64,000 nucleotides of DNA. Source: a virus. The notes beneath the pieces are model-generated. The model did not search any database and had not been told where the DNA came from. It was given only the letters and a program-made list of their open reading frames with translations. This document shows, in pieces, positions 52,979 to 63,077 of this stretch (position 1 is the first letter of the stretch; each line of letters opens with the position of its first letter). The stretch is taken from IMG/VR virus record IMGVR_UViG_3300020477_001849, positions 11,651 to 75,650 of that record. One strand, 5' to 3'. The position numbers were made by a program, and so were the translations under genes.

Positions 52979-53018
52979 ATTACCTATAATTATGCGGCAA
53001 AGTGGCTACAAAGTTTAA

Positions 53019-53978
53019 CTAATTTTCAACCATACATCTCGCAGAGATTAGTGCCGGCCTCAGATAGTTCTTAATATCGGCCTCGATTTCATCCCATGTT
53101 AACCATTTTGCTGCATGATGTTCACACTCACCGGTTGCAGGATTCGGTCGAATAATGGGGTCTTGCTCAGTCACGCCGACGTATAGCGTAACATGGCTAA
53201 CCCTAAATGTCTTATAGCCCCATGGGAATTTGATGTCGGATAACCCTGCCTCTTCATACGTTTCTCTTATTGCTGCATCAAAGGTATTTTCACCTGGTTC
53301 TATATTTCCCTTAGGCAGGTCATATTTTTCATATATCCTTAGGCCCAAAACCCTGTACTCAAGCCCTACTTGCTTTAAAACAATAATTCCTGCAGAGGGG
53401 CATCTACTTTTTTTTTCCATAATAGTCTCCCTTATGAAATTGCGAAGATCTGTTACGTCGTTTTCTATGACACCCTCAGACACCAGTGTGTGGCTAAAGC
53501 CTACACCCGAGGCCTCGGCTGCATTTTTAATGGCATATACATTTTTTATGTTATCTTCATACACATGTACATGTGTATAATCTCCAGCCTCTAGTCTTTT
53601 CGCTACGTACAAGCCTTTGTCATTTGGATTAGATGATCCTAGTGCGACAATGGAGATATTACTACGTAGCCCATTATCTTTTAAGAATTTTCTAACGGGA
53701 GGTGCAGAGCTTCTTGCTGTTAAAATAACGACGTTGCTAGCACCATGTTCACCTATAGTTTGCTGTAACTTTTTAAAGGTGCTTGGTATTGTCCTCCCCC
53801 CAGGGGGGTAGATTTCAAATTCAGAGAAATCAAATTTATCATCTGCTAATGGCTCATATAAAGCAAATTCTCCGCTATCTAAGTAACTAGTAGTACCATC
53901 ACCATGATATACTGTGACCTGCGCATCTGAAATTGCTAGCGTATCATCAAAATCAAATATGTGCAATGTATCATTCAT
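53019..53978 (-). CDS. HAD-like phosphatase fused to a Nudix hydrolase (Ap4A-hydrolase-like)
   Basis: N-terminal IFDFDDTL, ILTAR, K, YEDN. C-terminal Nudix box PKGNIEPGENTFDAAIRETYEEAGL. Confidence 0.85.
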   Translation of the reverse strand: MNDTLHIFDFDDTLAISDAQVTVYHGDGTTSYLDSGEFALYEPLADDKFDFSEFEIYPPGGRTIPSTFKKLQQTIGEHGASNVVILTARSSAPPVRKFLKDNGLRSNISIVALGSSNPNDKGLYVAKRLEAGDYTHVHVYEDNIKNVYAIKNAAEASGVGFSHTLVSEGVIENDVTDLRNFIRETIMEKKSRCPSAGIIVLKQVGLEYRVLGLRIYEKYDLPKGNIEPGENTFDAAIRETYEEAGLSDIKFPWGYKTFRVSHVTLYVGVTEQDPIIRPNPATGECEHHAAKWLTWDEIEADIKNYLRPALISARCMVEN

Positions 53979-54042
53979 AACATAATATAACTATACTAAT
54001 CCCATTACATATATGAACATGCCGGGCCTAATTAACTTGATA

Positions 54043-55674
54043 CTACCGAATGCATTCCCGAAATCCCCGGGGAAATAACGGTTTATTCATCCTGTAGAAC
54101 CTGTCCCAGTCAGAGTCAAGTATGTAGGTAACTGCGTGATCTTCCTTACTTCTTACACTCCTGCCCACTGATTGCATAATTGTTTTCGCAGTGTTTAATG
54201 GATACCACCACTTCCACCTATTCATCTTTTTTCGTATCAGTTTATCACCCAAATATGGATAGGGAATTTTGCAAATAACCTGAAACCTGCTGGATTCATC
54301 CTTGAGATCAACACCTTCCGTCATAGAGGGTGATAGTAGTACTGTGGGCTTTTTAGATGCTTTATGCTTCTTAAGCATCTCTTCTCTATTATGGCTATTG
54401 TGAATTATAAATCTTCTAGTTCTGATATTGTTTTTTAGATATTTTGCAATCTTGAAAGTGTGACAATGGATAATACCCTTTTCCGTTGGGTGATTATCTA
54501 GTATTTTCTTTACGCCTTCTGCCATCCTAGGAAGAGTCGAGTCAATTTCTTTAGATGACATACTGCCCAATCCGCATACAACTATCGGGCGGTTTTTAAC
54601 TGGAAAAGGTGATGGAATAGAAATAAAAGATACATCATCCAGTCCTATGCCTAAAAGTTCGCACAGTGCCTTGTGGTCAAGGACTGTAGCCGACATCATT
54701 ATGACCTTCTTACCTAATTTGAATAACATTTCCTCGGAATACGGTGCAACGTCAATTGGTTTAAATTCTATTTTCCTACCGGATTTTCCGTCGGCTGGAA
54801 TTAAATTACATACCCAGTTATTGTTGTCATAAAGCTCCATGAACCTGCTTAACTTGCAGCCATGCTTATCTAAAAGGTCAAATTGTTTTGCAATGGAGGT
54901 AAATTCGTTTAGCTTTTCTTTGAGCCCAGCATATTTTTCCAACATTTTTTCAATGTGCTTAATATGTGAAAATAGCTTTGGAGAATAGACATTCTTAATC
55001 CAGTTAATTGCCTGTGGTTGGGTTGAAATATCAGGCATATCCAGCTTTAGTGCCTGTTTTGCAAACCTAGAAGTTACTACTATTTCAATAAATTTAGATA
55101 GCTCATTAGGTACATTATGAGCTTCATCTATTATAAGCGTTTGTCGGGGTGTAATTTTTCCTGCGTACGCAGTCTCTGCTAAGAAATATGGGAAGTTAGT
55201 CACACTCTCTTTGGATTTTAAAAATTCCTCTTTTGCCGCCTTATAATTGCAGTTAAAAACGCATGATTTGAAAAACCTAGAATCTTTATCTGCAGTTCTC
55301 AATGCCTGGGCACTTTCAGCACATGAGTTTTTCTTATAGAAACTGCACTGATAATTCGTAGAAGACTTAATGGATTTCATTATTCCACCGTGACGCCCAA
55401 AGTCTTTTACATATTGCTCTTGAAGAATTTTCTGCGTAGTTAGAAAATATGATCCTCCCTCGTATAAATCATCACCCTTGTTATGCGACTCTAAATATCT
55501 GGCAATCGTTAATCCAATTGCACTTTTTCCTACACCGGTACCGGCCTCTATTATAACAAACCTTTTGTTTTCATTGATAATAGAATTTAAAGTAAAGTCA
55601 ATTGCAGCATGCTGACAATCTCTTATCTTTTTATGCGGAAAATATTTTGACCAATGTTCACTAGTAATATGCAT
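54043..55674 (-). CDS. DinG/Rad3-like SF2 helicase
   Basis: EAGTGVGKS, Cys cluster, IIDEAH, MSAT, EGVDL, KIPYP, QSVGRSVRSKED. Confidence 0.9.
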   Translation of the reverse strand: MHITSEHWSKYFPHKKIRDCQHAAIDFTLNSIINENKRFVIIEAGTGVGKSAIGLTIARYLESHNKGDDLYEGGSYFLTTQKILQEQYVKDFGRHGGIMKSIKSSTNYQCSFYKKNSCAESAQALRTADKDSRFFKSCVFNCNYKAAKEEFLKSKESVTNFPYFLAETAYAGKITPRQTLIIDEAHNVPNELSKFIEIVVTSRFAKQALKLDMPDISTQPQAINWIKNVYSPKLFSHIKHIEKMLEKYAGLKEKLNEFTSIAKQFDLLDKHGCKLSRFMELYDNNNWVCNLIPADGKSGRKIEFKPIDVAPYSEEMLFKLGKKVIMMSATVLDHKALCELLGIGLDDVSFISIPSPFPVKNRPIVVCGLGSMSSKEIDSTLPRMAEGVKKILDNHPTEKGIIHCHTFKIAKYLKNNIRTRRFIIHNSHNREEMLKKHKASKKPTVLLSPSMTEGVDLKDESSRFQVICKIPYPYLGDKLIRKKMNRWKWWYPLNTAKTIMQSVGRSVRSKEDHAVTYILDSDWDRFYRMNKPLFPRGFRECIR

Positions 55675-55692
55675 TACAACATATCTCCAACT

Positions 55693-56106
55693 TCAACTAT
55701 TTTTTATCTTAATAACGTCGAACTCATGAGAATCCGATGTGTAAAAAACACGGCGAACACCTACGAATCTTAAAACATCCATGCACATTTCACAAGGTTT
55801 TGACATCTGGAAATTTCCTCTTTTCCCTACACGGACTACAAATACATTTGCACCCTGGGTTATTTCTTTAGGTATACCTAACACAGCACCAATCTCAGCA
55901 TGTACAGTTGCCCTACCACTATCCTTGCTTCGAAATCGGGCTCCAAATGAACAGAAGCTATCTTTATTAAAAGATGTCTTCAATACACGTCCACCCTTAA
56001 CAAGAATAGCACCATGGCTAATATTTCCGTATGTGGAATTACTAGCTGCGCGCCTTGCAAGTTCGAAATATCTTTGAATTCGCTTGCTGGAATCAGGAAT
56101 AACCAT
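55693..56106 (-). CDS. Cytidine/dCMP deaminase-fold protein
   Basis: HGA, HAE, SKPCEMC Zn-binding motifs. Confidence 0.85.
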   Translation of the reverse strand: MVIPDSSKRIQRYFELARRAASNSTYGNISHGAILVKGGRVLKTSFNKDSFCSFGARFRSKDSGRATVHAEIGAVLGIPKEITQGANVFVVRVGKRGNFQMSKPCEMCMDVLRFVGVRRVFYTSDSHEFDVIKIKNS

Positions 56107-56138
56107 GATGCCTTATTGCAGAACCGGTAGTAGGGTGA

Positions 56139-56360
56139 TTACCCGAATACCAGAATATAGGCTTTGTCCCAAAATCCCATGGACGGCAAGTCCTCAGAAT
56201 TCTTTTGAGCTCTACCCAAGCCGGTTTCAATTTCTTTATCAGTTAATAGGAGCGTATTAATGTCACCATGATTATCGATGTACGTTATGCCGTTATAAAA
56301 ATCACCGGCTACGCCTCTTTTTCCAGAATTTTTAACTGACTTTAACTTTCCGATATTCAT
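56139..56360 (-). CDS. Hypothetical protein
   Basis: 73 aa, GGAGG SD, downstream of a near-consensus promoter. Confidence 0.6.
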   Translation of the reverse strand: MNIGKLKSVKNSGKRGVAGDFYNGITYIDNHGDINTLLLTDKEIETGLGRAQKNSEDLPSMGFWDKAYILVFG

Positions 56361-56389
56361 TCTACAAGCCTCCCTATGGCATTTTTTAA

Positions 56390-56418
56390 ATTATAATCAA
56401 AACGCGTATCATTTACAA
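56390..56418 (-). promoter_or_regulatory. Putative sigma70 promoter TTGTAA-N17-TATAAT (equivalently TGTAAA-N16-TATAAT)
   Basis: Heads the 56360-deaminase-helicase run, in a divergent intergenic gap. Confidence 0.6.
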
Positions 56419-56473
56419 CGGAATGAAGAAAAAAAGACTTGCCTATTTAAATTTATGAGAGGTTAAAAATCTT

Positions 56474-57316
56474 ATGAAAAAACCCAAGCTTAAGCTTAAC
56501 AGTATCATCTGGATTGTCGTTATTTTTTCCGCCCTTTGTTTGAGTTATTCATGTTGCGCAACATCCCAATTGGGGTTGGTGTCTAGAGAAGACGCAACTC
56601 ATATTAATAGAAATGCATTTACGCTAGTAGAAGCATCTTATGAGTTAATAGCAACCGAATGCCTAGGAAATGAAAAGAAATGTAAAACAATGCCAAGAAA
56701 CATAAAAGTAAATTCGATGCAAGCACGCGGGTCAGGTGTTATTATAGAACATCGAAGAAATTCGACATACATCATGACTGCTGGTCATGTATGCGAGCAT
56801 TCATTTCCAGACACAGTAAATGTCGATGGCCTAAAGTATGCAACAAGATCCCATACTAGCATAAGGTTCTTTGACCTATACGGGTCGTCTCATGAAGGTA
56901 GGGTGCTATACTCTGACATGGAGGCTGACATATGTATCGTTGAGTCACCTGGTCAGTGGGGCTCAACAATTAGGATAGCTGATTCAATGCCACGGCATGG
57001 AGCTAGAGTATTTAATACGGCTGCACCGTTTGGCATTTATTCACCCAAGATGGTGCTAATCTTTGAGGGATTCTACTCAGGTGAAGACATGACAGGCAAC
57101 GTATTTTTTACGTTACCTTGCCGTCCCGGAAGCTCAGGATCTCCAGTCTATAACTCAGATGGTGAACTTATAAGCATTATTCACTCTGCATCTGTAATGT
57201 TTGAAAACCTAGGTCTAGGCTCTAGGTTAGAGATCATTAAGGAAGCAATCAAGGCTCATATACCACCTAAGCTAGAACCTATCGTACATTATATGTGGTA
57301 TAAAGAAGTTAACTAA
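56474..57316 (+). CDS. Trypsin-like (S1) serine protease with N-terminal signal/membrane anchor
   Basis: Basic then hydrophobic N-terminus ending in SCC, GSG, TAGHVC, D in ADIC, PGSSGSP. Confidence 0.88.
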   Translation: MKKPKLKLNSIIWIVVIFSALCLSYSCCATSQLGLVSREDATHINRNAFTLVEASYELIATECLGNEKKCKTMPRNIKVNSMQARGSGVIIEHRRNSTYIMTAGHVCEHSFPDTVNVDGLKYATRSHTSIRFFDLYGSSHEGRVLYSDMEADICIVESPGQWGSTIRIADSMPRHGARVFNTAAPFGIYSPKMVLIFEGFYSGEDMTGNVFFTLPCRPGSSGSPVYNSDGELISIIHSASVMFENLGLGSRLEIIKEAIKAHIPPKLEPIVHYMWYKEVN

Positions 57317-57588
57317 CGCATTTTCTTTGAGGCTTTAAGCCTTTCATGGTGATACTTGGTCGGCTTTTTAATGATCTCCATTATATTTGCTAACCGAAAC
57401 TGTCCACACATTTCGCATGCGAAACTGATATAGTCTTCACCATCGCTTGGACAATCAATGTGAAAGCTAGCTATAGCACCGTATCCAAGCTTACCGTCTG
57501 GGTACCTTTTTACGAATACCTTTTGACCGTATTTATACCCACCAAAGCTAGATATGTCTGGTACGTATTCCTTCTTTTTTCTAGGCAT
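57313..57588 (-). CDS. Hypothetical small beta-barrel (SH3-like) protein
   Basis: YGQKVFV...GYGAI pattern. Confidence 0.5.
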   Translation of the reverse strand: MPRKKKEYVPDISSFGGYKYGQKVFVKRYPDGKLGYGAIASFHIDCPSDGEDYISFACEMCGQFRLANIMEIIKKPTKYHHERLKASKKMR

Positions 57589-57589
57589 A

Positions 57590-57916
57590 TTAGTATTCTA
57601 TATCAGAAACTGCAGGTGTACCAGTGTCTATATTTTTTGACAACCTTTCCCTATTCGCTTTTTCGACATTCTGTCTTGCGAAATTCTGAGCATCTTCTTC
57701 GCTGGCAAATATCCTTAAGGGTGTTGATAGATTATCGTCAAATTCGACAGTAACTTGGGAATACCACTGCTGACCATTTCCCATAGGATATACATCAACG
57801 CTGATCCCAGGATAGTCCTCCCAAGAATAGGGATCATTATCAATAGTATGGTAATTCCTCCCTATTTCTTCCCTTAGTATTGTTCGAACTATTTTTCTAA
57901 GTGTACTTATTTTCAC
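57590..57916 (-). CDS. Hypothetical protein with an MKISxLRxIVRxILxEE leader
   Basis: GTG start overlapping the upstream stop. Leader shared with 60666-61097 and 62631-62990. Confidence 0.65.
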   Translation of the reverse strand: MKISTLRKIVRTILREEIGRNYHTIDNDPYSWEDYPGISVDVYPMGNGQQWYSQVTVEFDDNLSTPLRIFASEEDAQNFARQNVEKANRERLSKNIDTGTPAVSDIEY

Positions 57917-58113
57917 TGACCATCACCCCTGTTATAAATAGAAGTTAAGTCTTTAATCATACCACGAATTCGTGATGCACTTAATACATCACCCTTAGTT
58001 AGATATAGGCCAATGAGTGCCTCGAGGTATCTCTTTGCATTATGATATATCGTTTTCTTTAGGGCATCTTCGTGATCAACCGCAATCAACTTTTCATCTT
58101 TTTGATTATGCAT
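57913..58113 (-). CDS. Hypothetical protein
   Basis: 66 aa, GGGAG SD. Confidence 0.55.
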   Translation of the reverse strand: MHNQKDEKLIAVDHEDALKKTIYHNAKRYLEALIGLYLTKGDVLSASRIRGMIKDLTSIYNRGDGQ

Positions 58114-58179
58114 GTCACTTCTCCCTTTCTAAAATTTTAAATCAAATAATGTTTCCTCGATAGAACTGACTTGGGGGCA

Positions 58180-58440
58180 TCATGGTATTATTGCAACTTT
58201 CCATGTACCGTTTTTTGATTTTACCCAAGTCATCTTACGTGGTGTAGCATCGCTGGAACCTTTAAGAAATTCCGGCTTGAATAATGTGTATTGTAGGCTA
58301 TCTTTTGGGTTAACTACCGGATTCTCTAGCATCAAATGATTGTGGTGAATATCCGTGGATACCTTGTTGGTGCCTAGAGTTTTGCACCCTATCAACATAG
58401 TAACTATAATAGCCGTAATTAGTAACATTTTGCTTTTCAT
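58180..58440 (-). CDS. Putative lipoprotein
   Basis: MKSK, hydrophobic core, lipobox-like LIG-C. Confidence 0.6.
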   Translation of the reverse strand: MKSKMLLITAIIVTMLIGCKTLGTNKVSTDIHHNHLMLENPVVNPKDSLQYTLFKPEFLKGSSDATPRKMTWVKSKNGTWKVAIIP

Positions 58441-58463
58441 GAAAACCTCAACTCTACTAGTAC

Positions 58464-59090
58464 CTATGGTCTATCTATCAAATTATATTCCGGAGGTATA
58501 CCTTTTCCAAAATCTATAAGTTCCATATCGTACGTATATAGTGACCAACCAATTGGCTCATGACCACCGGCCGCGGCGATCATCTTTTTTGATAATTCAG
58601 GAAGGCTCTTAAAGGGCCCTCGAATTCCCCAGTTTCCCGTGTGATATAGCTTTTTAGGATTTCTTCCTCTAAAAAATAAACATACCGCATGCCCAGAAGG
58701 CTTGCCTTCTAGGGTAAGCCATGATGTAGTAAAATATAGCGGCTCGAAATTTGGATTAATACAATTCACCGCCCATGCTGAAAAGTCATCACAATCCAAA
58801 GAGCCATCAGGCTGTGAACCGGTTTCCGCTATACTGTCGATACAATGTTGTACCCAATAGGGTGATCCAACGGCATCCCCTAACTCTTTGAGCCCATCTT
58901 TTTTCCACGTAAGTGTATCCATCAACTCTGTGGCTTGATCCGGATCTAGCCCTAGGCTAAGTACAACATGTTTGTATTTTCTATGATAAATGAATCGATA
59001 GATAGAGCTCCACAGGGTATATAACCTAAATGCATGAGCAGACCAGTGCATTACAATTAGAAAAATTAATTTTGCTTTTCTTAACATCAT
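58464..59090 (-). CDS. Transglutaminase-like cysteine protease
   Basis: LDCDDFS...GHAVC, typical of transglutaminase-like/BTLCP catalytic motifs. Confidence 0.65.
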   Translation of the reverse strand: MMLRKAKLIFLIVMHWSAHAFRLYTLWSSIYRFIYHRKYKHVVLSLGLDPDQATELMDTLTWKKDGLKELGDAVGSPYWVQHCIDSIAETGSQPDGSLDCDDFSAWAVNCINPNFEPLYFTTSWLTLEGKPSGHAVCLFFRGRNPKKLYHTGNWGIRGPFKSLPELSKKMIAAAGGHEPIGWSLYTYDMELIDFGKGIPPEYNLIDRP

Positions 59091-59126
59091 CTTTCACCGT
59101 ATATTATCATAAGTATGACTTAAGAT

Positions 59127-59155
59127 AAAAAAAGGCCCTGGCATGCCAGGGCCTT
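59127..59155 (-). terminator. Rho-independent terminator after hsp20
   Basis: Perfect 24-bp palindrome AAGGCCCTGGCATGCCAGGGCCTT (59132-59155) running into a U-tract on the minus strand. Confidence 0.8.
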
Positions 59156-59182
59156 CTAGCTCATATGAGCTAATCACAGATT

Positions 59183-59650
59183 TTAACTAACGGTGACCCG
59201 TCGTTTAGCCGACTCCTGCTTTTCAACAGGAATATTGATAGTAAGGATGCCGGCGTCATACCTAGCTGAAATGGAATCAAATTCAACTCCCTCCGGTAAT
59301 GACCAAGACTTAGAGAAAGAACTATAGTCAAACCCTCTAGACAAATAGCTATTCTTTACATCACTAACCCCAGCGTTATGTTGTTTCATAGAGATAGACA
59401 ATACGTCTTTATCAATATCAATAGTAAAGTCATCCCTAGAGTAACCGGGGACAGCCAATGCAATCTCAAAACCTGATTCATCCTTAAGGATATTACAGGG
59501 TGGTGAGTTAACATATGCTGAGTTACTCAGTGCTCGAGGTGCAGTCCAAGAAGCATCAGACCACTTGGGAAAAATGCTGTCGAGGATATCATTAAAGTCG
59601 CTGTAGGGATAATACTTCTTTTTTGTTGAAATAGGGAAAAAATTACTCAT
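59183..59650 (-). CDS. Small heat-shock protein (Hsp20/alpha-crystallin)
   Basis: NI...LAVPG, FSKSWSLPEGV, ISARYDAGILTINIP. Confidence 0.92.
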   Translation of the reverse strand: MSNFFPISTKKKYYPYSDFNDILDSIFPKWSDASWTAPRALSNSAYVNSPPCNILKDESGFEIALAVPGYSRDDFTIDIDKDVLSISMKQHNAGVSDVKNSYLSRGFDYSSFSKSWSLPEGVEFDSISARYDAGILTINIPVEKQESAKRRVTVS

Positions 59651-59761
59651 TTAAACTAGCCTCCATTAGATAGTCCGACTTAGTCGGTATTTTCCATATG
59701 GGTAAAAGATAATAACAAGATGAGCTCGGAACAGGCCTAAAGTGCTTTTTTTTTATTTTTT

Positions 59762-59965
59762 TTATTTTTCTTTAGGGTATGAAAGAGGGAACGTGTGTGT
59801 AGTATATTCGTGATAGCCCCTTATGGTTGCTATAACAACTTCACCTGGGTGTAGTTCTTCAAACATACTCTTCACCATGCAACTATCTCTAGGCCCTAGG
59901 AATTTAAAATATGATGTTTTTCCCATAGACCAATTAATCGAAATAACTGTCCATGGTATTCTCAC
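59762..59965 (-). CDS. Hypothetical protein
   Basis: 67 aa, start overlaps the upstream stop. Confidence 0.5.
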   Translation of the reverse strand: MRIPWTVISINWSMGKTSYFKFLGPRDSCMVKSMFEELHPGEVVIATIRGYHEYTTHTFPLSYPKEK

Positions 59966-60180
59966 TGGTCAAGTTCTTCAAGCCAGATGTCTAAGGAATC
60001 TTTAACGATGGTAGAATCCCATGACTCTTGGAATTCTATTAGTGCATGATAAAGATCCGGATACTCTTCTTCAATCTTGCTAAAATCTGATTCGAATACA
60101 GATTCTGCTCCGGTTATAAGGTGATTAATAAGTACTTTAATTGCAGCATGCTGCTCAGCGCTCAAACTTAAATCTGCCAT
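59962..60180 (-). CDS. Hypothetical acidic protein
   Basis: 72 aa, co-oriented. Confidence 0.5.
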   Translation of the reverse strand: MADLSLSAEQHAAIKVLINHLITGAESVFESDFSKIEEEYPDLYHALIEFQESWDSTIVKDSLDIWLEELDQ

Positions 60181-60218
60181 ACTCTACTTTCCTTGACCTA
60201 TCCGCTATGTCTTTTGGC

Positions 60219-60566
60219 CTAACCAATATCTACAGGTTTATCTGTTATAACTGTTTCTGTCACTATAATTTCTTCTACATGCCTATCGAAAACCTCAACT
60301 TTCGAAAGCGGGACGTAACAAGCAAGGCTGTTAGACTTTTCTATAATGAAATACTCTTGATGCCCGTCAATTGTCCCACGCATGTAGCACCCGGATGTAA
60401 TTAGTTCTTCAATATCCTGACGTCCTTCACTGGTTTGGGCCTGGTACTTTAAAATAAAATTTTCCTTAAATTTACATATGACCCATTCTTTACTGGTAGA
60501 ATGACGACTAGTAATCTTATGGGGCTTTATTTTTATACCCATCTCTCTAGTCCTGCCTGTAAGCAT
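60219..60566 (-). CDS. Hypothetical protein
   Basis: 115 aa, co-oriented. Confidence 0.5.
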   Translation of the reverse strand: MLTGRTREMGIKIKPHKITSRHSTSKEWVICKFKENFILKYQAQTSEGRQDIEELITSGCYMRGTIDGHQEYFIIEKSNSLACYVPLSKVEVFDRHVEEIIVTETVITDKPVDIG

Positions 60567-60665
60567 TTAATCATTCTTACCAAAAATACTATAACATAAA
60601 ACTAAAAATGTCGATAGTATAAGAAAAATGCTAAATGCTGTCTTTAGCTCTTCAATTCTATTCAA

Positions 60666-61097
60666 CTATCCGACAACGTCTATAACTGCATCAATCAGGG
60701 GAGTAGAGTCATCGACAATTACCGGTGCATTATCAACCTCAGCGCTCACCTGACCAACGGATGCATTTTCTTGAATTACCTCTACTTGTGCATTCAGCAT
60801 TTCTTGAAGTGCTTCTGCTTGAGCAACAACGGCCTCAACAACCGGTGCTTGTACAGCAACTTCATCAACACACCCCGGACACATATGTGCGGCATTCTGC
60901 ACAGATTCAACGACCTGCTCAAGCGCTCGTGATGCCATAACCATTTCAACAAGAACATCATGCTCAGGTGAGTTACTTTCAACTACGGGGCCAGGCGATG
61001 GTGCCTCAGGAGCAGGTGCCATATCTTCGCCACACTCCAGCATCCTAGCTTTTTCTTCACGAATAATTTTCTTAAGTTGCCTTTTCGAAATTCTCAT
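60666..61097 (-). CDS. Acidic protein with MRISKRQLKKIIREE leader; candidate internal head protein
   Basis: Basic amphipathic leader, then an E/V/A-rich body with repeated (V/L/I)xE. GGAG SD and ATAGTTA upstream. Confidence 0.65.
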   Translation of the reverse strand: MRISKRQLKKIIREEKARMLECGEDMAPAPEAPSPGPVVESNSPEHDVLVEMVMASRALEQVVESVQNAAHMCPGCVDEVAVQAPVVEAVVAQAEALQEMLNAQVEVIQENASVGQVSAEVDNAPVIVDDSTPLIDAVIDVVG

Positions 61098-61150
61098 CTT
61101 TAATCTCCGGTGGTGTACAAATAACTATATTCTTTTAATTAAAATACACA

Positions 61151-61438
61151 TTATGCATTTTTCTTTTTCGGGTATTCAGGATGCTGGATATTCAGGTATA
61201 TCTTTCTTTCCCCAGGCATTAGCTCCACCTGGGTTTTTACCCTCCACCCTACATCCCTGTATTGTTGAATAATATATTGATAAAATGACATCCAGTATTC
61301 TCTAATCTCGAACATCATTCCATTCTGTAGTTGCTTACTTGACCATTCACCCTCGAGGCACCGGTTCACAGCTTTAATTACTGCCCTGCATTCTTCCGAT
61401 GGGCGGTCTTTTAATTTTTTTATTAAGTTAATACTCAT
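61151..61438 (-). CDS. Hypothetical protein
   Basis: 95 aa, ATATTTA motif upstream. Confidence 0.55.
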   Translation of the reverse strand: MSINLIKKLKDRPSEECRAVIKAVNRCLEGEWSSKQLQNGMMFEIREYWMSFYQYIIQQYRDVGWRVKTQVELMPGERKIYLNIQHPEYPKKKNA

Positions 61439-61509
61439 ATATGAGTTACTCAGTCCATCACAACTATCACCAATAAATATTCCGGGTGATGATAAGTTAA
61501 TCTAGAATT

Positions 61510-61728
61510 CTAGACGCCCTTAATGTGCTGCAAAACATGGAATGTATGAGTATTAACATATACAGGTACAATATTGTCGTGGCATAATATTAAGTATGCC
61601 AGTGTTGCTGTCTCACTGGGCATGGTCATCCATTCTTTTCCCATGTATATACCGGTAATGATAGGTGCATTACTGTATATTCTAGGCCTAGGAATGGCTT
61701 GGATCAGATCACCTTCAGCTAGCTTCAT
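61510..61728 (-). CDS. Small SH3/KOW-like beta-barrel protein
   Basis: EGDLIQ...GIYMG. Confidence 0.5.
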   Translation of the reverse strand: MKLAEGDLIQAIPRPRIYSNAPIITGIYMGKEWMTMPSETATLAYLILCHDNIVPVYVNTHTFHVLQHIKGV

Positions 61729-61749
61729 ATTTTGGCATCCTACAGCTAG

Positions 61750-61926
61750 TTATATTATCCTCAATTCTTCTGGCGTGTACATTCCAACTGATGAGTCTTG
61801 CCACAGCACATGTATTACGATAGGGGTATCATGATGAATTGACTTCTTGATGCTAGTAACTGTACCCGTGCCATGTTTTCCTCTTAGCATTACCTTTGTA
61901 CCAATTGATATATCACGACTTCCCAC
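61750..61926 (-). CDS. Small SH3/KOW-like beta-barrel protein
   Basis: Likely GTG start at 61926 (the track start overlaps the next gene). IGTKVML...GTGTV...VLW...EELRII. Confidence 0.5.
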   Translation of the reverse strand: MGSRDISIGTKVMLRGKHGTGTVTSIKKSIHHDTPIVIHVLWQDSSVGMYTPEELRII

Positions 61927-62155
61927 CTGGCCAGTCGCCTTTAAGGATTTCGACTTTATGTGTTCTTGCGGGAATTTTAACGACCTTTCCCTTAAATAGA
62001 ACGGTGTAAAATAAGATTGCACCGGCTTCACTCGCATCTTCCCACTCTTCTCCCATATACAGCGCAGGCACAATCATGTACCCCGTATAGTCTTTTATAG
62101 GCGCTACTATCACCATATCTCCGGGTTTCGGAGAGCTCATGAGTAACCCCGGCAT
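61913..62155 (-). CDS. Small SH3/KOW-like beta-barrel protein
   Basis: KPGDMVIV...ALYMGEEW, resembling 61510-61728. Confidence 0.55.
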   Translation of the reverse strand: MPGLLMSSPKPGDMVIVAPIKDYTGYMIVPALYMGEEWEDASEAGAILFYTVLFKGKVVKIPARTHKVEILKGDWPGGKS

Positions 62156-62182
62156 GTCAATAACATATTATTAATTATGGCC

Positions 62183-62455
62183 CTATAGGGGAATATGTGT
62201 ACCCTTGTTAATAGATGTCATATTAATAATATTGATTTCCGCTAGGCCGCGGTGGTCAGTATAAGTTGGAGGAATGTCTGAAAACCACTGAATTCTCCAG
62301 CACCAGCATGGCCAATCAGCCGGCTTTCCATTTTTTGCATACATGTCGAACCTTTCATATAGCATCCCCCTATAGTCCTCTCCAGGCCTTGACCACTCCG
62401 AAGGCATATCATTAAGGATAACAATATCCCCTTCCTTTAGGCGTCTTCTAGGCAT
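62183..62455 (-). CDS. Small SH3/KOW-like beta-barrel protein
   Basis: LKEGDIVIL...GML...WRIQW. Confidence 0.5.
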   Translation of the reverse strand: MPRRRLKEGDIVILNDMPSEWSRPGEDYRGMLYERFDMYAKNGKPADWPCWCWRIQWFSDIPPTYTDHRGLAEINIINMTSINKGTHIPL

Positions 62456-62630
62456 GCAGTATACCCCTTTAGATCATGATTATAAATGGTACCATACATG
62501 ATAAGCGATTACACGAATTACCGCCGCGCGGTTTTTCTCGAGAGCGTTCTTTTCTCGAGCAGTTTTTAAGGCGAATATTCGTATGTCGCCTCAGGCGACG
62601 TCTCACGTCGTCCATTCCGCGACAATACAG

Positions 62631-62990
62631 CTAGCGTCCGATAGATTTTCCGAGCATGTATGAACGAAGTGAATTTAATCGGTCCAATACGGTAGCAACC
62701 TTGCCTTGACCCCATTCCGGAACGTGTTCCAAGTCTTTGACCATATCGCTAAGCTCCAAGGCAGTAGCCGCAATCGATTGAAGTTGATTAACGGTCATTC
62801 CGACTTCTTCATCGGTCTCCTCAGCTTCAGGGGCCAGACCAATATCTTCAGGATCAAAAACAACAACTTCACTCTCTAGTTCCTCGGCCGGTGGCCACGA
62901 AGATACCTCCTCGTCCACCCCTAGAGGCCCTAGAGCACTTTCTAACTCTTCCTTGATTATACACTTAAGTCTCTGTTTACTGATCTTCAT
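62631..62990 (-). CDS. Acidic protein with MKISKQRLKCIIKEE leader; candidate prohead core/internal protein
   Basis: Likely start ATG 62990 (GAGG upstream). C-terminal helical M..QL....A.EL...PEW.Q.K...Y segment. Confidence 0.65.
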   Translation of the reverse strand: MKISKQRLKCIIKEELESALGPLGVDEEVSSWPPAEELESEVVVFDPEDIGLAPEAEETDEEVGMTVNQLQSIAATALELSDMVKDLEHVPEWGQGKVATVLDRLNSLRSYMLGKSIGR

Positions 62991-63077
62991 GACATGCTTC
63001 CTCACGGGACGTAGCTAGTAATTAATTATACTGTACAGATGACAAAGTAACATAGCCGCCCCCGATAGACAAGCACT

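Follow-up and report, generated by a model that had tools for sequence, protein, structure and literature searches.

Here we describe a short N-terminal peptide, referred to below as the leader, that heads two small, acidic, and otherwise unrelated proteins encoded in the IMG/VR virus record IMGVR_UViG_3300020477_001849. The stretch analysed (the window, to which coordinates refer unless another record is named) comprises 64 kb of this 75.65-kb record, which CheckV rates as 21 % complete. The minus strand carries 80 of the 85 genes called in it. Megablast of the region returned no match. The nearest matches of the helicase encoded in the window are giant-phage helicases, and proteins identical to those of the window are found on metagenome contigs of up to 288 kb; thus, the window is a fragment of an uncultured marine giant phage of T4-like type.

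The first leader protein, protein A (60666..61097, minus strand), is the product of a 143-aa open reading frame (ORF) that starts with MRISKRQLKKIIREE and is preceded by a GGAG Shine-Dalgarno (SD) signal at -13. Its leader spans residues 1-22 (MRISKRQLKKIIRE-EKARMLE; 61032..61097, minus strand). Protein B (119 aa; 62631..62990, minus strand) starts with MKISKQRLKCIIKEE, has the SD signal GAGGAAG upstream of its ATG at 62990, and carries a leader of 18 residues (MKISKQRLKCIIKE-ELES; 62937..62990, minus strand). Both leaders were recognised by a hidden Markov model (HMM) that was built solely from leaders of other genomes. Protein A reached 34-38 bits and protein B 20-24 bits, against control maxima of 3.7 bits for reversed N-termini and 5.2 bits for internal segments, which places both in the canonical MKITKRQLRRIIKE leader family and bears out the expectation that the leader exceeds what chance N-termini would yield. 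In the window's own contig, these are the only two canonical genes that score.

Beyond the leader the two proteins have nothing recognisable in common. The profiles of their families align over the 22 leader columns alone (hhalign probability 96 %, E 1.7e-9), and therefore their bodies are unrelated, as had been claimed. Members of both families retain an N-terminus of the form MKITKRQLRRII[KR]EE, followed by a variable acidic or Pro-rich linker and then by a helical domain specific to each family. In protein A the order is canonical leader, ECGEDM, disordered Pro/acidic linker, and a conserved helical hairpin with a CxxC motif, and in protein B canonical leader, disordered acidic linker, and a conserved C-terminal two-helix domain. 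AlphaFold2 models agree with this layout, with a confident N-terminal helix, a disordered linker next to it, and a separate body (helix 5-21, disorder 25-40, and helices 44-120 in protein A; helix 5-20, disorder 23-57, and helices 57-118 in protein B). At least 121 metagenomic homologues of protein A were found. Its body holds six [LIVM]-x-E sites that are kept at 95 % or more across 61 homologues, several of them preceding Ser or Ala, in line with the many (V/L/I)xE sites noted in the original prediction. Within the leaders, putative cut sites of the same kind can be read from the sequence after E14 (I-R-E) and E21 (M-L-E) of protein A and after E14 (I-K-E) of protein B. Cys73 and Cys76, which form the CxxC motif, are invariant in the protein A family and Cys22 is retained at 90 % or more (alignment A3; window 60666-61097, minus strand), possibly reflecting a metal site or a disulfide. 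A Foldseek comparison of the protein A model with viral structures gave nothing at E <= 0.001, and the protein atlas returned unnamed viral clusters alone, every score being below 0.9.

The original prediction had listed two further copies of the leader, at the N-terminus of the protein starting at 57916 and in the interdomain linker of a HAD-Nudix fusion (coding sequence 53019-53978). All four segments are present where it had placed them, but the latter two do not belong to the leader family by profile and fit only a looser helix motif. The 57916 gene (57590..57916, minus strand; family alignment A4) encodes a 108-aa protein that begins with MKISTLRKIVRTILREE from a GTG start and has, like proteins A and B, its own metagenomic family. 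The leader HMM gives its N-terminus about 0 bits, and the match of its family profile to the leader is weak (17 columns, hhalign probability 33 %, E 4e-4). Furthermore, the N-terminus varies in length within this family, the helix enters the invariant core EEIGRNYHT without a linker, and some members lack the helix. The interdomain helix DLRNFIRETIME of the HAD-Nudix fusion (53415..53450, minus strand) scores -1.5 bits and is a leader-core-like helix rather than a leader copy. The same fusion occurs in the related record G001, where the linker is kept as VLRDYIKEMIRS, and in G003 and G005 HAD and Nudix are separate genes. The suggestion that cleavage at the linker would release the Nudix domain is speculation, because the stand-alone Nudix genes of these relatives carry no leader. 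In T4, ipII and ipIII lie two genes away from nudE, which encodes a Nudix hydrolase (L147; NC_000866 65416-67490), and in the window the Nudix gene is likewise a few kilobases from the leader genes, a parallel that is probably coincidence.

The looser motif, L-[RKH]-x-[YFILV]-[IV]-[RK]-x-x-[ILVM], occurs 10 times in the non-canonical proteins of G000 and G003 against 0.18 expected. Six of the ten stand at the extreme N-terminus (0.013 expected), the 57916 protein among them; the other four are internal and include the HAD-Nudix linker. As the motif was defined after the examples had been seen, we treat it as a lead only. Several larger proteins without a Pfam match are headed by this second, looser class of N-terminal helix (for example MNLLREYIRELLTE, MKLLREYIRSLLNE, MKKSDLRRIVRHVINE); it was noted in L142:2179-2775(-), L142:6038-6571(-), L143:9170-10000(-), and L139:17771-18835(-) in G003, together with window 57590-57916(-).

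The canonical leader extends far beyond the window. A degenerate DNA pattern of it gave 216 matches at 110 IMG/VR loci, often five to eight within a few kilobases, and every one of the 216 begins an ORF. The 200 complete ORFs encode proteins of 42-458 aa (median 100), whose bodies fall into 126 BLAST clusters, so that the leader is a real tag found on at least 126 unrelated bodies. For closer comparison, five marine phage records of 200-293 kb served as relatives, two of which are rated complete, including G003; in these, the leader profile detects 24-40 ORFs per genome, grouped in arrays and encoding small proteins that are for the most part acidic and bear no relation to one another. Searched against 1.84 billion representative proteins, the profile matched 10,316 clusters (50 % identity) at E <= 0.001. 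The leader strings were absent from papers in a full-text search, and the family is part of a very large, apparently undescribed superfamily.

Its consensus, MKI[ST]KRQLRRII[KR]E, is often extended by EKARLLxE, the conserved block comprising residues 1-14 and often reaching residue 22. Positions 16-22 were unconstrained by the search pattern and are nonetheless conserved as K-A-[RK]-[LIV]-L-x-E. The codons are extensively mixed, with six codons in use for Leu8 and varying codons for Ile and Arg; therefore, selection maintains the peptide and not the DNA. Essentially invariant is the glutamate at position 14, present in 137 of 139 HMM-defined array leaders and replaced by Asp in none. In the same 139 leaders, Ile11 and Ile12 are near-invariant and position 15 accepts E, A, S, Q, or T. 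Residues 12-14 read [LI]-x-E in 265 of 274 unique leaders. The peptide has an isoelectric point (pI) of 11, with six to eight Lys/Arg among 18 residues, plus a hydrophobic face.

Leaders also occur repeatedly within single frames. Each of the 150 best library matches (P0178-P0327) holds 2-4 copies, and hundreds of predicted ORFs have 2-4 in-frame leaders, for example L059:3310 (+); at G002:C1:153296 and 153980, copies lie inside one open frame. The first residue of internal copies is Met in 66 % of cases and Val, Leu, or Ile in 18 %; the remaining 16 % start with a residue not expected of a start codon. Just upstream of them E-[GSN]-K recurs, which may be read as a cut site and equally as an in-frame SD sequence (GGAG or AGGA).

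The genomes of the relatives encode a T4-type head. The Pfam Gp23 capsid protein is present in all five (~215 bits) and a Peptidase_S77 prohead protease of the T4 gp21 type in all four tested (85-94 bits), annotated in PHROGs as head maturation protease. The head module runs in the order terminase, portal, a 280-aa protein, protease, several small proteins, a scaffold-like protein, and capsid, the scaffold-like protein being strongly acidic and 540-580 aa long. Pfam and PHROGs searches covered the three window proteins, the neighbours in the head module, and ten proteins that were long or loosely tagged, and recognised only the protease. Two genes past the protease lies a conserved protein of ~150 aa, which in G003 begins with MAKITKRMLKGIVKE, a variant of the leader scoring 17.4 bits; lower scores were obtained for the G004 and G005 orthologues, and the gene that comes next (97 aa) is a borderline case with 6.8 bits. 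Immediately behind the capsid gene of G005 and on its strand stands a run of five canonical leader genes, and this genome has another two ahead of the head module. The N-termini of the capsid and scaffold proteins appeared leader-like by eye and were dropped as candidates, as they do not score with the leader HMM; the expectation that a profile scan would also recover the scaffold was thus not borne out. The cleavage sites of T4 gp23 (FLTE/A) and gp24 (LLRE/S; NC_000866), where the slash marks the cut, align exactly with V-L-[KR]-E/A of the marine capsid proteins, and from this alignment the (L/I)-x-E specificity of the protease is probably retained in the marine phages. In G004, two full-length gp23-type capsid genes with near-identical N-termini stand in tandem (L130:10270-12168(+) and L130:12262-14151(+)), perhaps a pair comparable to gp23/gp24, perhaps the product of a recent duplication.

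The best-supported reading of these data, in which we place moderate confidence, is that the leader may act as a T4-style capsid-targeting propeptide that is cut after I-x-E. This retains the core of the original prediction, a portable capsid-targeting-like tag, on the strength of the T4-type protease and capsid of the relatives, the I-x-E at position 14, the head-module variant, the five leader genes behind the capsid gene, the alignment of the T4 cleavage sites with the marine capsid proteins, and the spread of the leader over at least 126 unrelated bodies, although without the 57916 and HAD-Nudix copies. As we picture it, the leader would be a portable N-terminal propeptide whose basic amphipathic helix docks the tagged protein on the acidic scaffolding core of a forming T4-type prohead; the basic leader could pair with the strongly acidic putative scaffold. 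A gp21-type protease would then cut the leader off after Glu14, and in many copies perhaps a second time after L-x-E at about residue 22. We infer core binding and cleavage, and likewise packaging and injection, from these features of the leader and its genomes. The tagged proteins would not all share one fate. Since it belongs to a clade-wide conserved family with six conserved [LIVM]-x-E sites, protein A may resemble a conserved component of the prohead core that, like T4 gp22, undergoes degradation during maturation; to judge from its sequence, it looks more like such a degraded core protein than like surviving cargo. The hypervariable leader proteins, by comparison, would be candidates for packaged and possibly injected cargo. 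A bolder version, in which a widespread clade of marine T4-like giant phages would load 24-40 rapidly diversifying small acidic proteins into each virion by means of a single portable 14-residue tag and deliver them with the DNA, we put forward tentatively and regard as rather less than an even prospect.

The comparison with T4 is one of analogy and shared grammar, homology not being demonstrable. In T4, the targeting sequences are N-terminal propeptides of 10-20 residues, and they are the only conserved part of otherwise highly diverse internal proteins (PMC3012670, PMC9026906, PMC5694885). Asp at the cut site stops processing there and still allows targeting (PMC9026906). Like the T4 capsid-targeting sequences of IPI, IPII, IPIII, and Alt and the gp24 propeptide, all of which the prohead protease gp21 removes, the leader is a short helix at the very N-terminus; it opens with M-K, closes with hydrophobic-x-Glu before a small or polar residue, and heads mutually dissimilar bodies, which are highly variable as in T-even phages. 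Furthermore, in the relatives tested the leader occurs together with T4-type head genes, namely those for a protease of the gp21 type, a capsid protein of the gp23 type, and an acidic scaffold-like protein. In contrast, the leader shows no detectable similarity to MKTYQEFIAE or MAKINELLRE, is longer (14-22 aa), and is strongly basic, and the handful of tagged genes in T4 is exceeded by 24-40 per genome, in long tandem arrays and with many ORFs that contain 2-4 leader copies.

Giant phages offer a second comparison. In phiKZ and SPN3US there are dozens of head proteins and expanded head-protein families (PMC5694885); for instance, SPN3US gp53 and gp54 have identical 15-residue N-termini, and head paralogue family B counts 20 members (PMC5694885). 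The T4-related protease and the identical short N-termini on otherwise diverged proteins are common to these giant phages and to ours (PMC5694885). Their proteases, by contrast, cut after A/S/G-x-E and most of their propeptides exceed 100 residues (PMC5694885), whereas the leader has Ile at P3 and spans 14-22 aa. Moreover, their paralogues are recognisably related along the bodies, unlike leader proteins, which share the leader alone. A third parallel is one of logic only and lies in the architecture of the peptides that load cargo into bacterial microcompartments and encapsulins, where a short amphipathic helix joined by a flexible linker to unrelated cargo directs loading of a protein shell. 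Those peptides are not cut off by a maturation protease, and the encapsulin ones are usually C-terminal.

Several observations weigh against a role in capsid targeting. The leader HMM assigns less than 4 bits to the N-termini of T4 IPI, IPII, IPIII, gp24, gp22, gp23, gp67, and gp68 (NC_000866). Leader bodies are acidic (median pI 4.5, 81 % below 5.5), whereas T4 IPI, IPII, and IPIII are basic (pI 8.9-9.5), and packing 24-40 different acidic proteins beside DNA would be physically demanding. Depletion of [LI]-x-E, the sign expected of surviving cargo, was not found in the leader bodies, which instead show a slight enrichment (z = +2.4); because of this, many of them might simply be degraded. 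The window's own 75 kb record, 21 % complete, contains no match to a Peptidase_S77 protease or a capsid gene. When protein A and the consensus leader were compared by tblastn with a collection of 50,697 phage records, nothing usable emerged, and among its cultured phages the lone leader match, with E = 9, was not convincing. Finally, most leader genes stand in arrays remote from the head module, and those of the window sit among small ORFs beside hsp20, the helicase, and a putative deaminase-like gene.

These last two points also speak for an alternative that we consider unlikely, namely that the leader is never cleaved and serves as a helix for docking or oligomerisation, gathering many small acidic effectors at a common hub elsewhere than in the capsid; such a hub might be host RNA polymerase, the ribosome, or a chaperone, or a GroEL-like or Hsp20 protein encoded by the phage itself. 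The arrays would then be a cytoplasmic arsenal for host takeover or anti-defence, and as arrays of small acidic hypervariable proteins they indeed resemble typical phage early or anti-defence regions. Hydrophobic residues at positions 1, 4, 8, 11/12, 15, and 19 (consensus by inspection) make up a heptad-like stripe that would suit helix-helix docking. What such docking leaves unexplained is why Glu14 is never Asp while Glu15 varies freely, why the leader matches the cleavage grammar of the capsid proteins, and why its variant heads a conserved head-module protein and five leader genes come right behind the capsid gene of G005.

It appears to us quite improbable that the basic amphipathic helix binds membrane or nucleic acid, either as an in-plane anchor that would hold the variable bodies at the envelope or as an arginine-rich peptide that would bring them to the RNA or DNA of phage or host. 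The charge of the leader and its hydrophobic face would fit, and N-terminal arginine-rich helices do bind RNA in the N proteins of lambdoid phages; yet the stripe is narrow, with four or five hydrophobic residues only, the leader runs on into an acidic stretch (EE...E), and the invariant I-x-E and the link to the head module are equally hard to explain. That the leader has no targeting function at all and merely reflects cassette duplication or gene conversion, a translation-enhancing 5' coding ramp, or chance in the window is very improbable and already largely refuted, for although tandem arrays favour duplication and recombination and the A-rich first codons (ATG AAA ATC ACA AAA) are a feature tied to efficient initiation, the peptide is kept over 14-22 residues through synonymous codon change and across 10,316 clusters with bodies diverged past recognition, and its HMM scores lie far above the controls.

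Promoter-like motifs near the leader genes give a less uniform picture. The original prediction had placed the genes at 61097, 62990, and 53978 directly behind an ATANTTA motif, which is indeed near but not directly adjacent: ATAGTTA lies 31 nt upstream of the protein A start (61122..61128, minus strand), ATAATTA 39 nt upstream of the protein B start (63023..63029, minus strand), and ATAGTTA 16 nt upstream of the HAD-Nudix start (53988..53994, minus strand). A further site of this type is found at 52987-52993. Across the window, the motif is depleted (50 matches versus 97 +/- 11 expected), and it occurs in 10 of the 38 sense-strand intergenic gaps of the contig. In G003, the intergenic enrichment of its extended form GATATTTA is 11-fold, whereas over the genome as a whole GATAYTTA/ATANTTA is depleted. 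The G003 sites, mostly GATA[TCA]TTA, precede the portal gene (G003:83839-85758), a head-core gene, and yeaH, as well as putative sheath-like and baseplate-like genes labelled by size and position. GATAYTTA/ATANTTA is compatible, as judged from these sites, with a candidate minimal T4-late-like promoter of the clade. A promoter shared by the leader genes was not found: the SD signal alone is common to them, ATANTTA lies upstream of 6 of 187, and the extended motif precedes only 6 of 138 leader genes in arrays. A sigma-70 scan of 57-64 kb gave 29 matches against 20 +/- 4.9, not clearly above chance.

Two other features of the neighbourhood were recorded. A strong intrinsic-terminator-like hairpin (12 pairs, 7 of them G-C, with a T-run) lies just 3' of hsp20 at 59130-59157 on the minus strand. 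Of the few genes on the plus strand, the one at 56474-57316 codes for a trypsin-like serine peptidase of 280 aa (Pfam Trypsin_2, E 1.5e-14); its N-terminus is hydrophobic and signal-like, and the enzyme bears no relation to the head protease.

If the leader works as proposed, thousands of proteins of marine viral dark matter would obtain their first functional handle, as capsid-loaded core or cargo. The invariant I-x-E site leads to a sharp prediction for viral metaproteomics, namely semi-tryptic peptides that start at residue 15, and the tag could be usable as a packaging signal for synthetic cargo and in engineering. Should the leader instead dock on a cytoplasmic hub, it would mark a new and very large effector superfamily. 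If capsid loading holds, the internal-protein strategy of T4 would scale to dozens of hypervariable cargos per genome, and, if these are delivered with the DNA, the more than 10,000 clusters worldwide would represent an injected-effector repertoire far larger than that known from any other phage.

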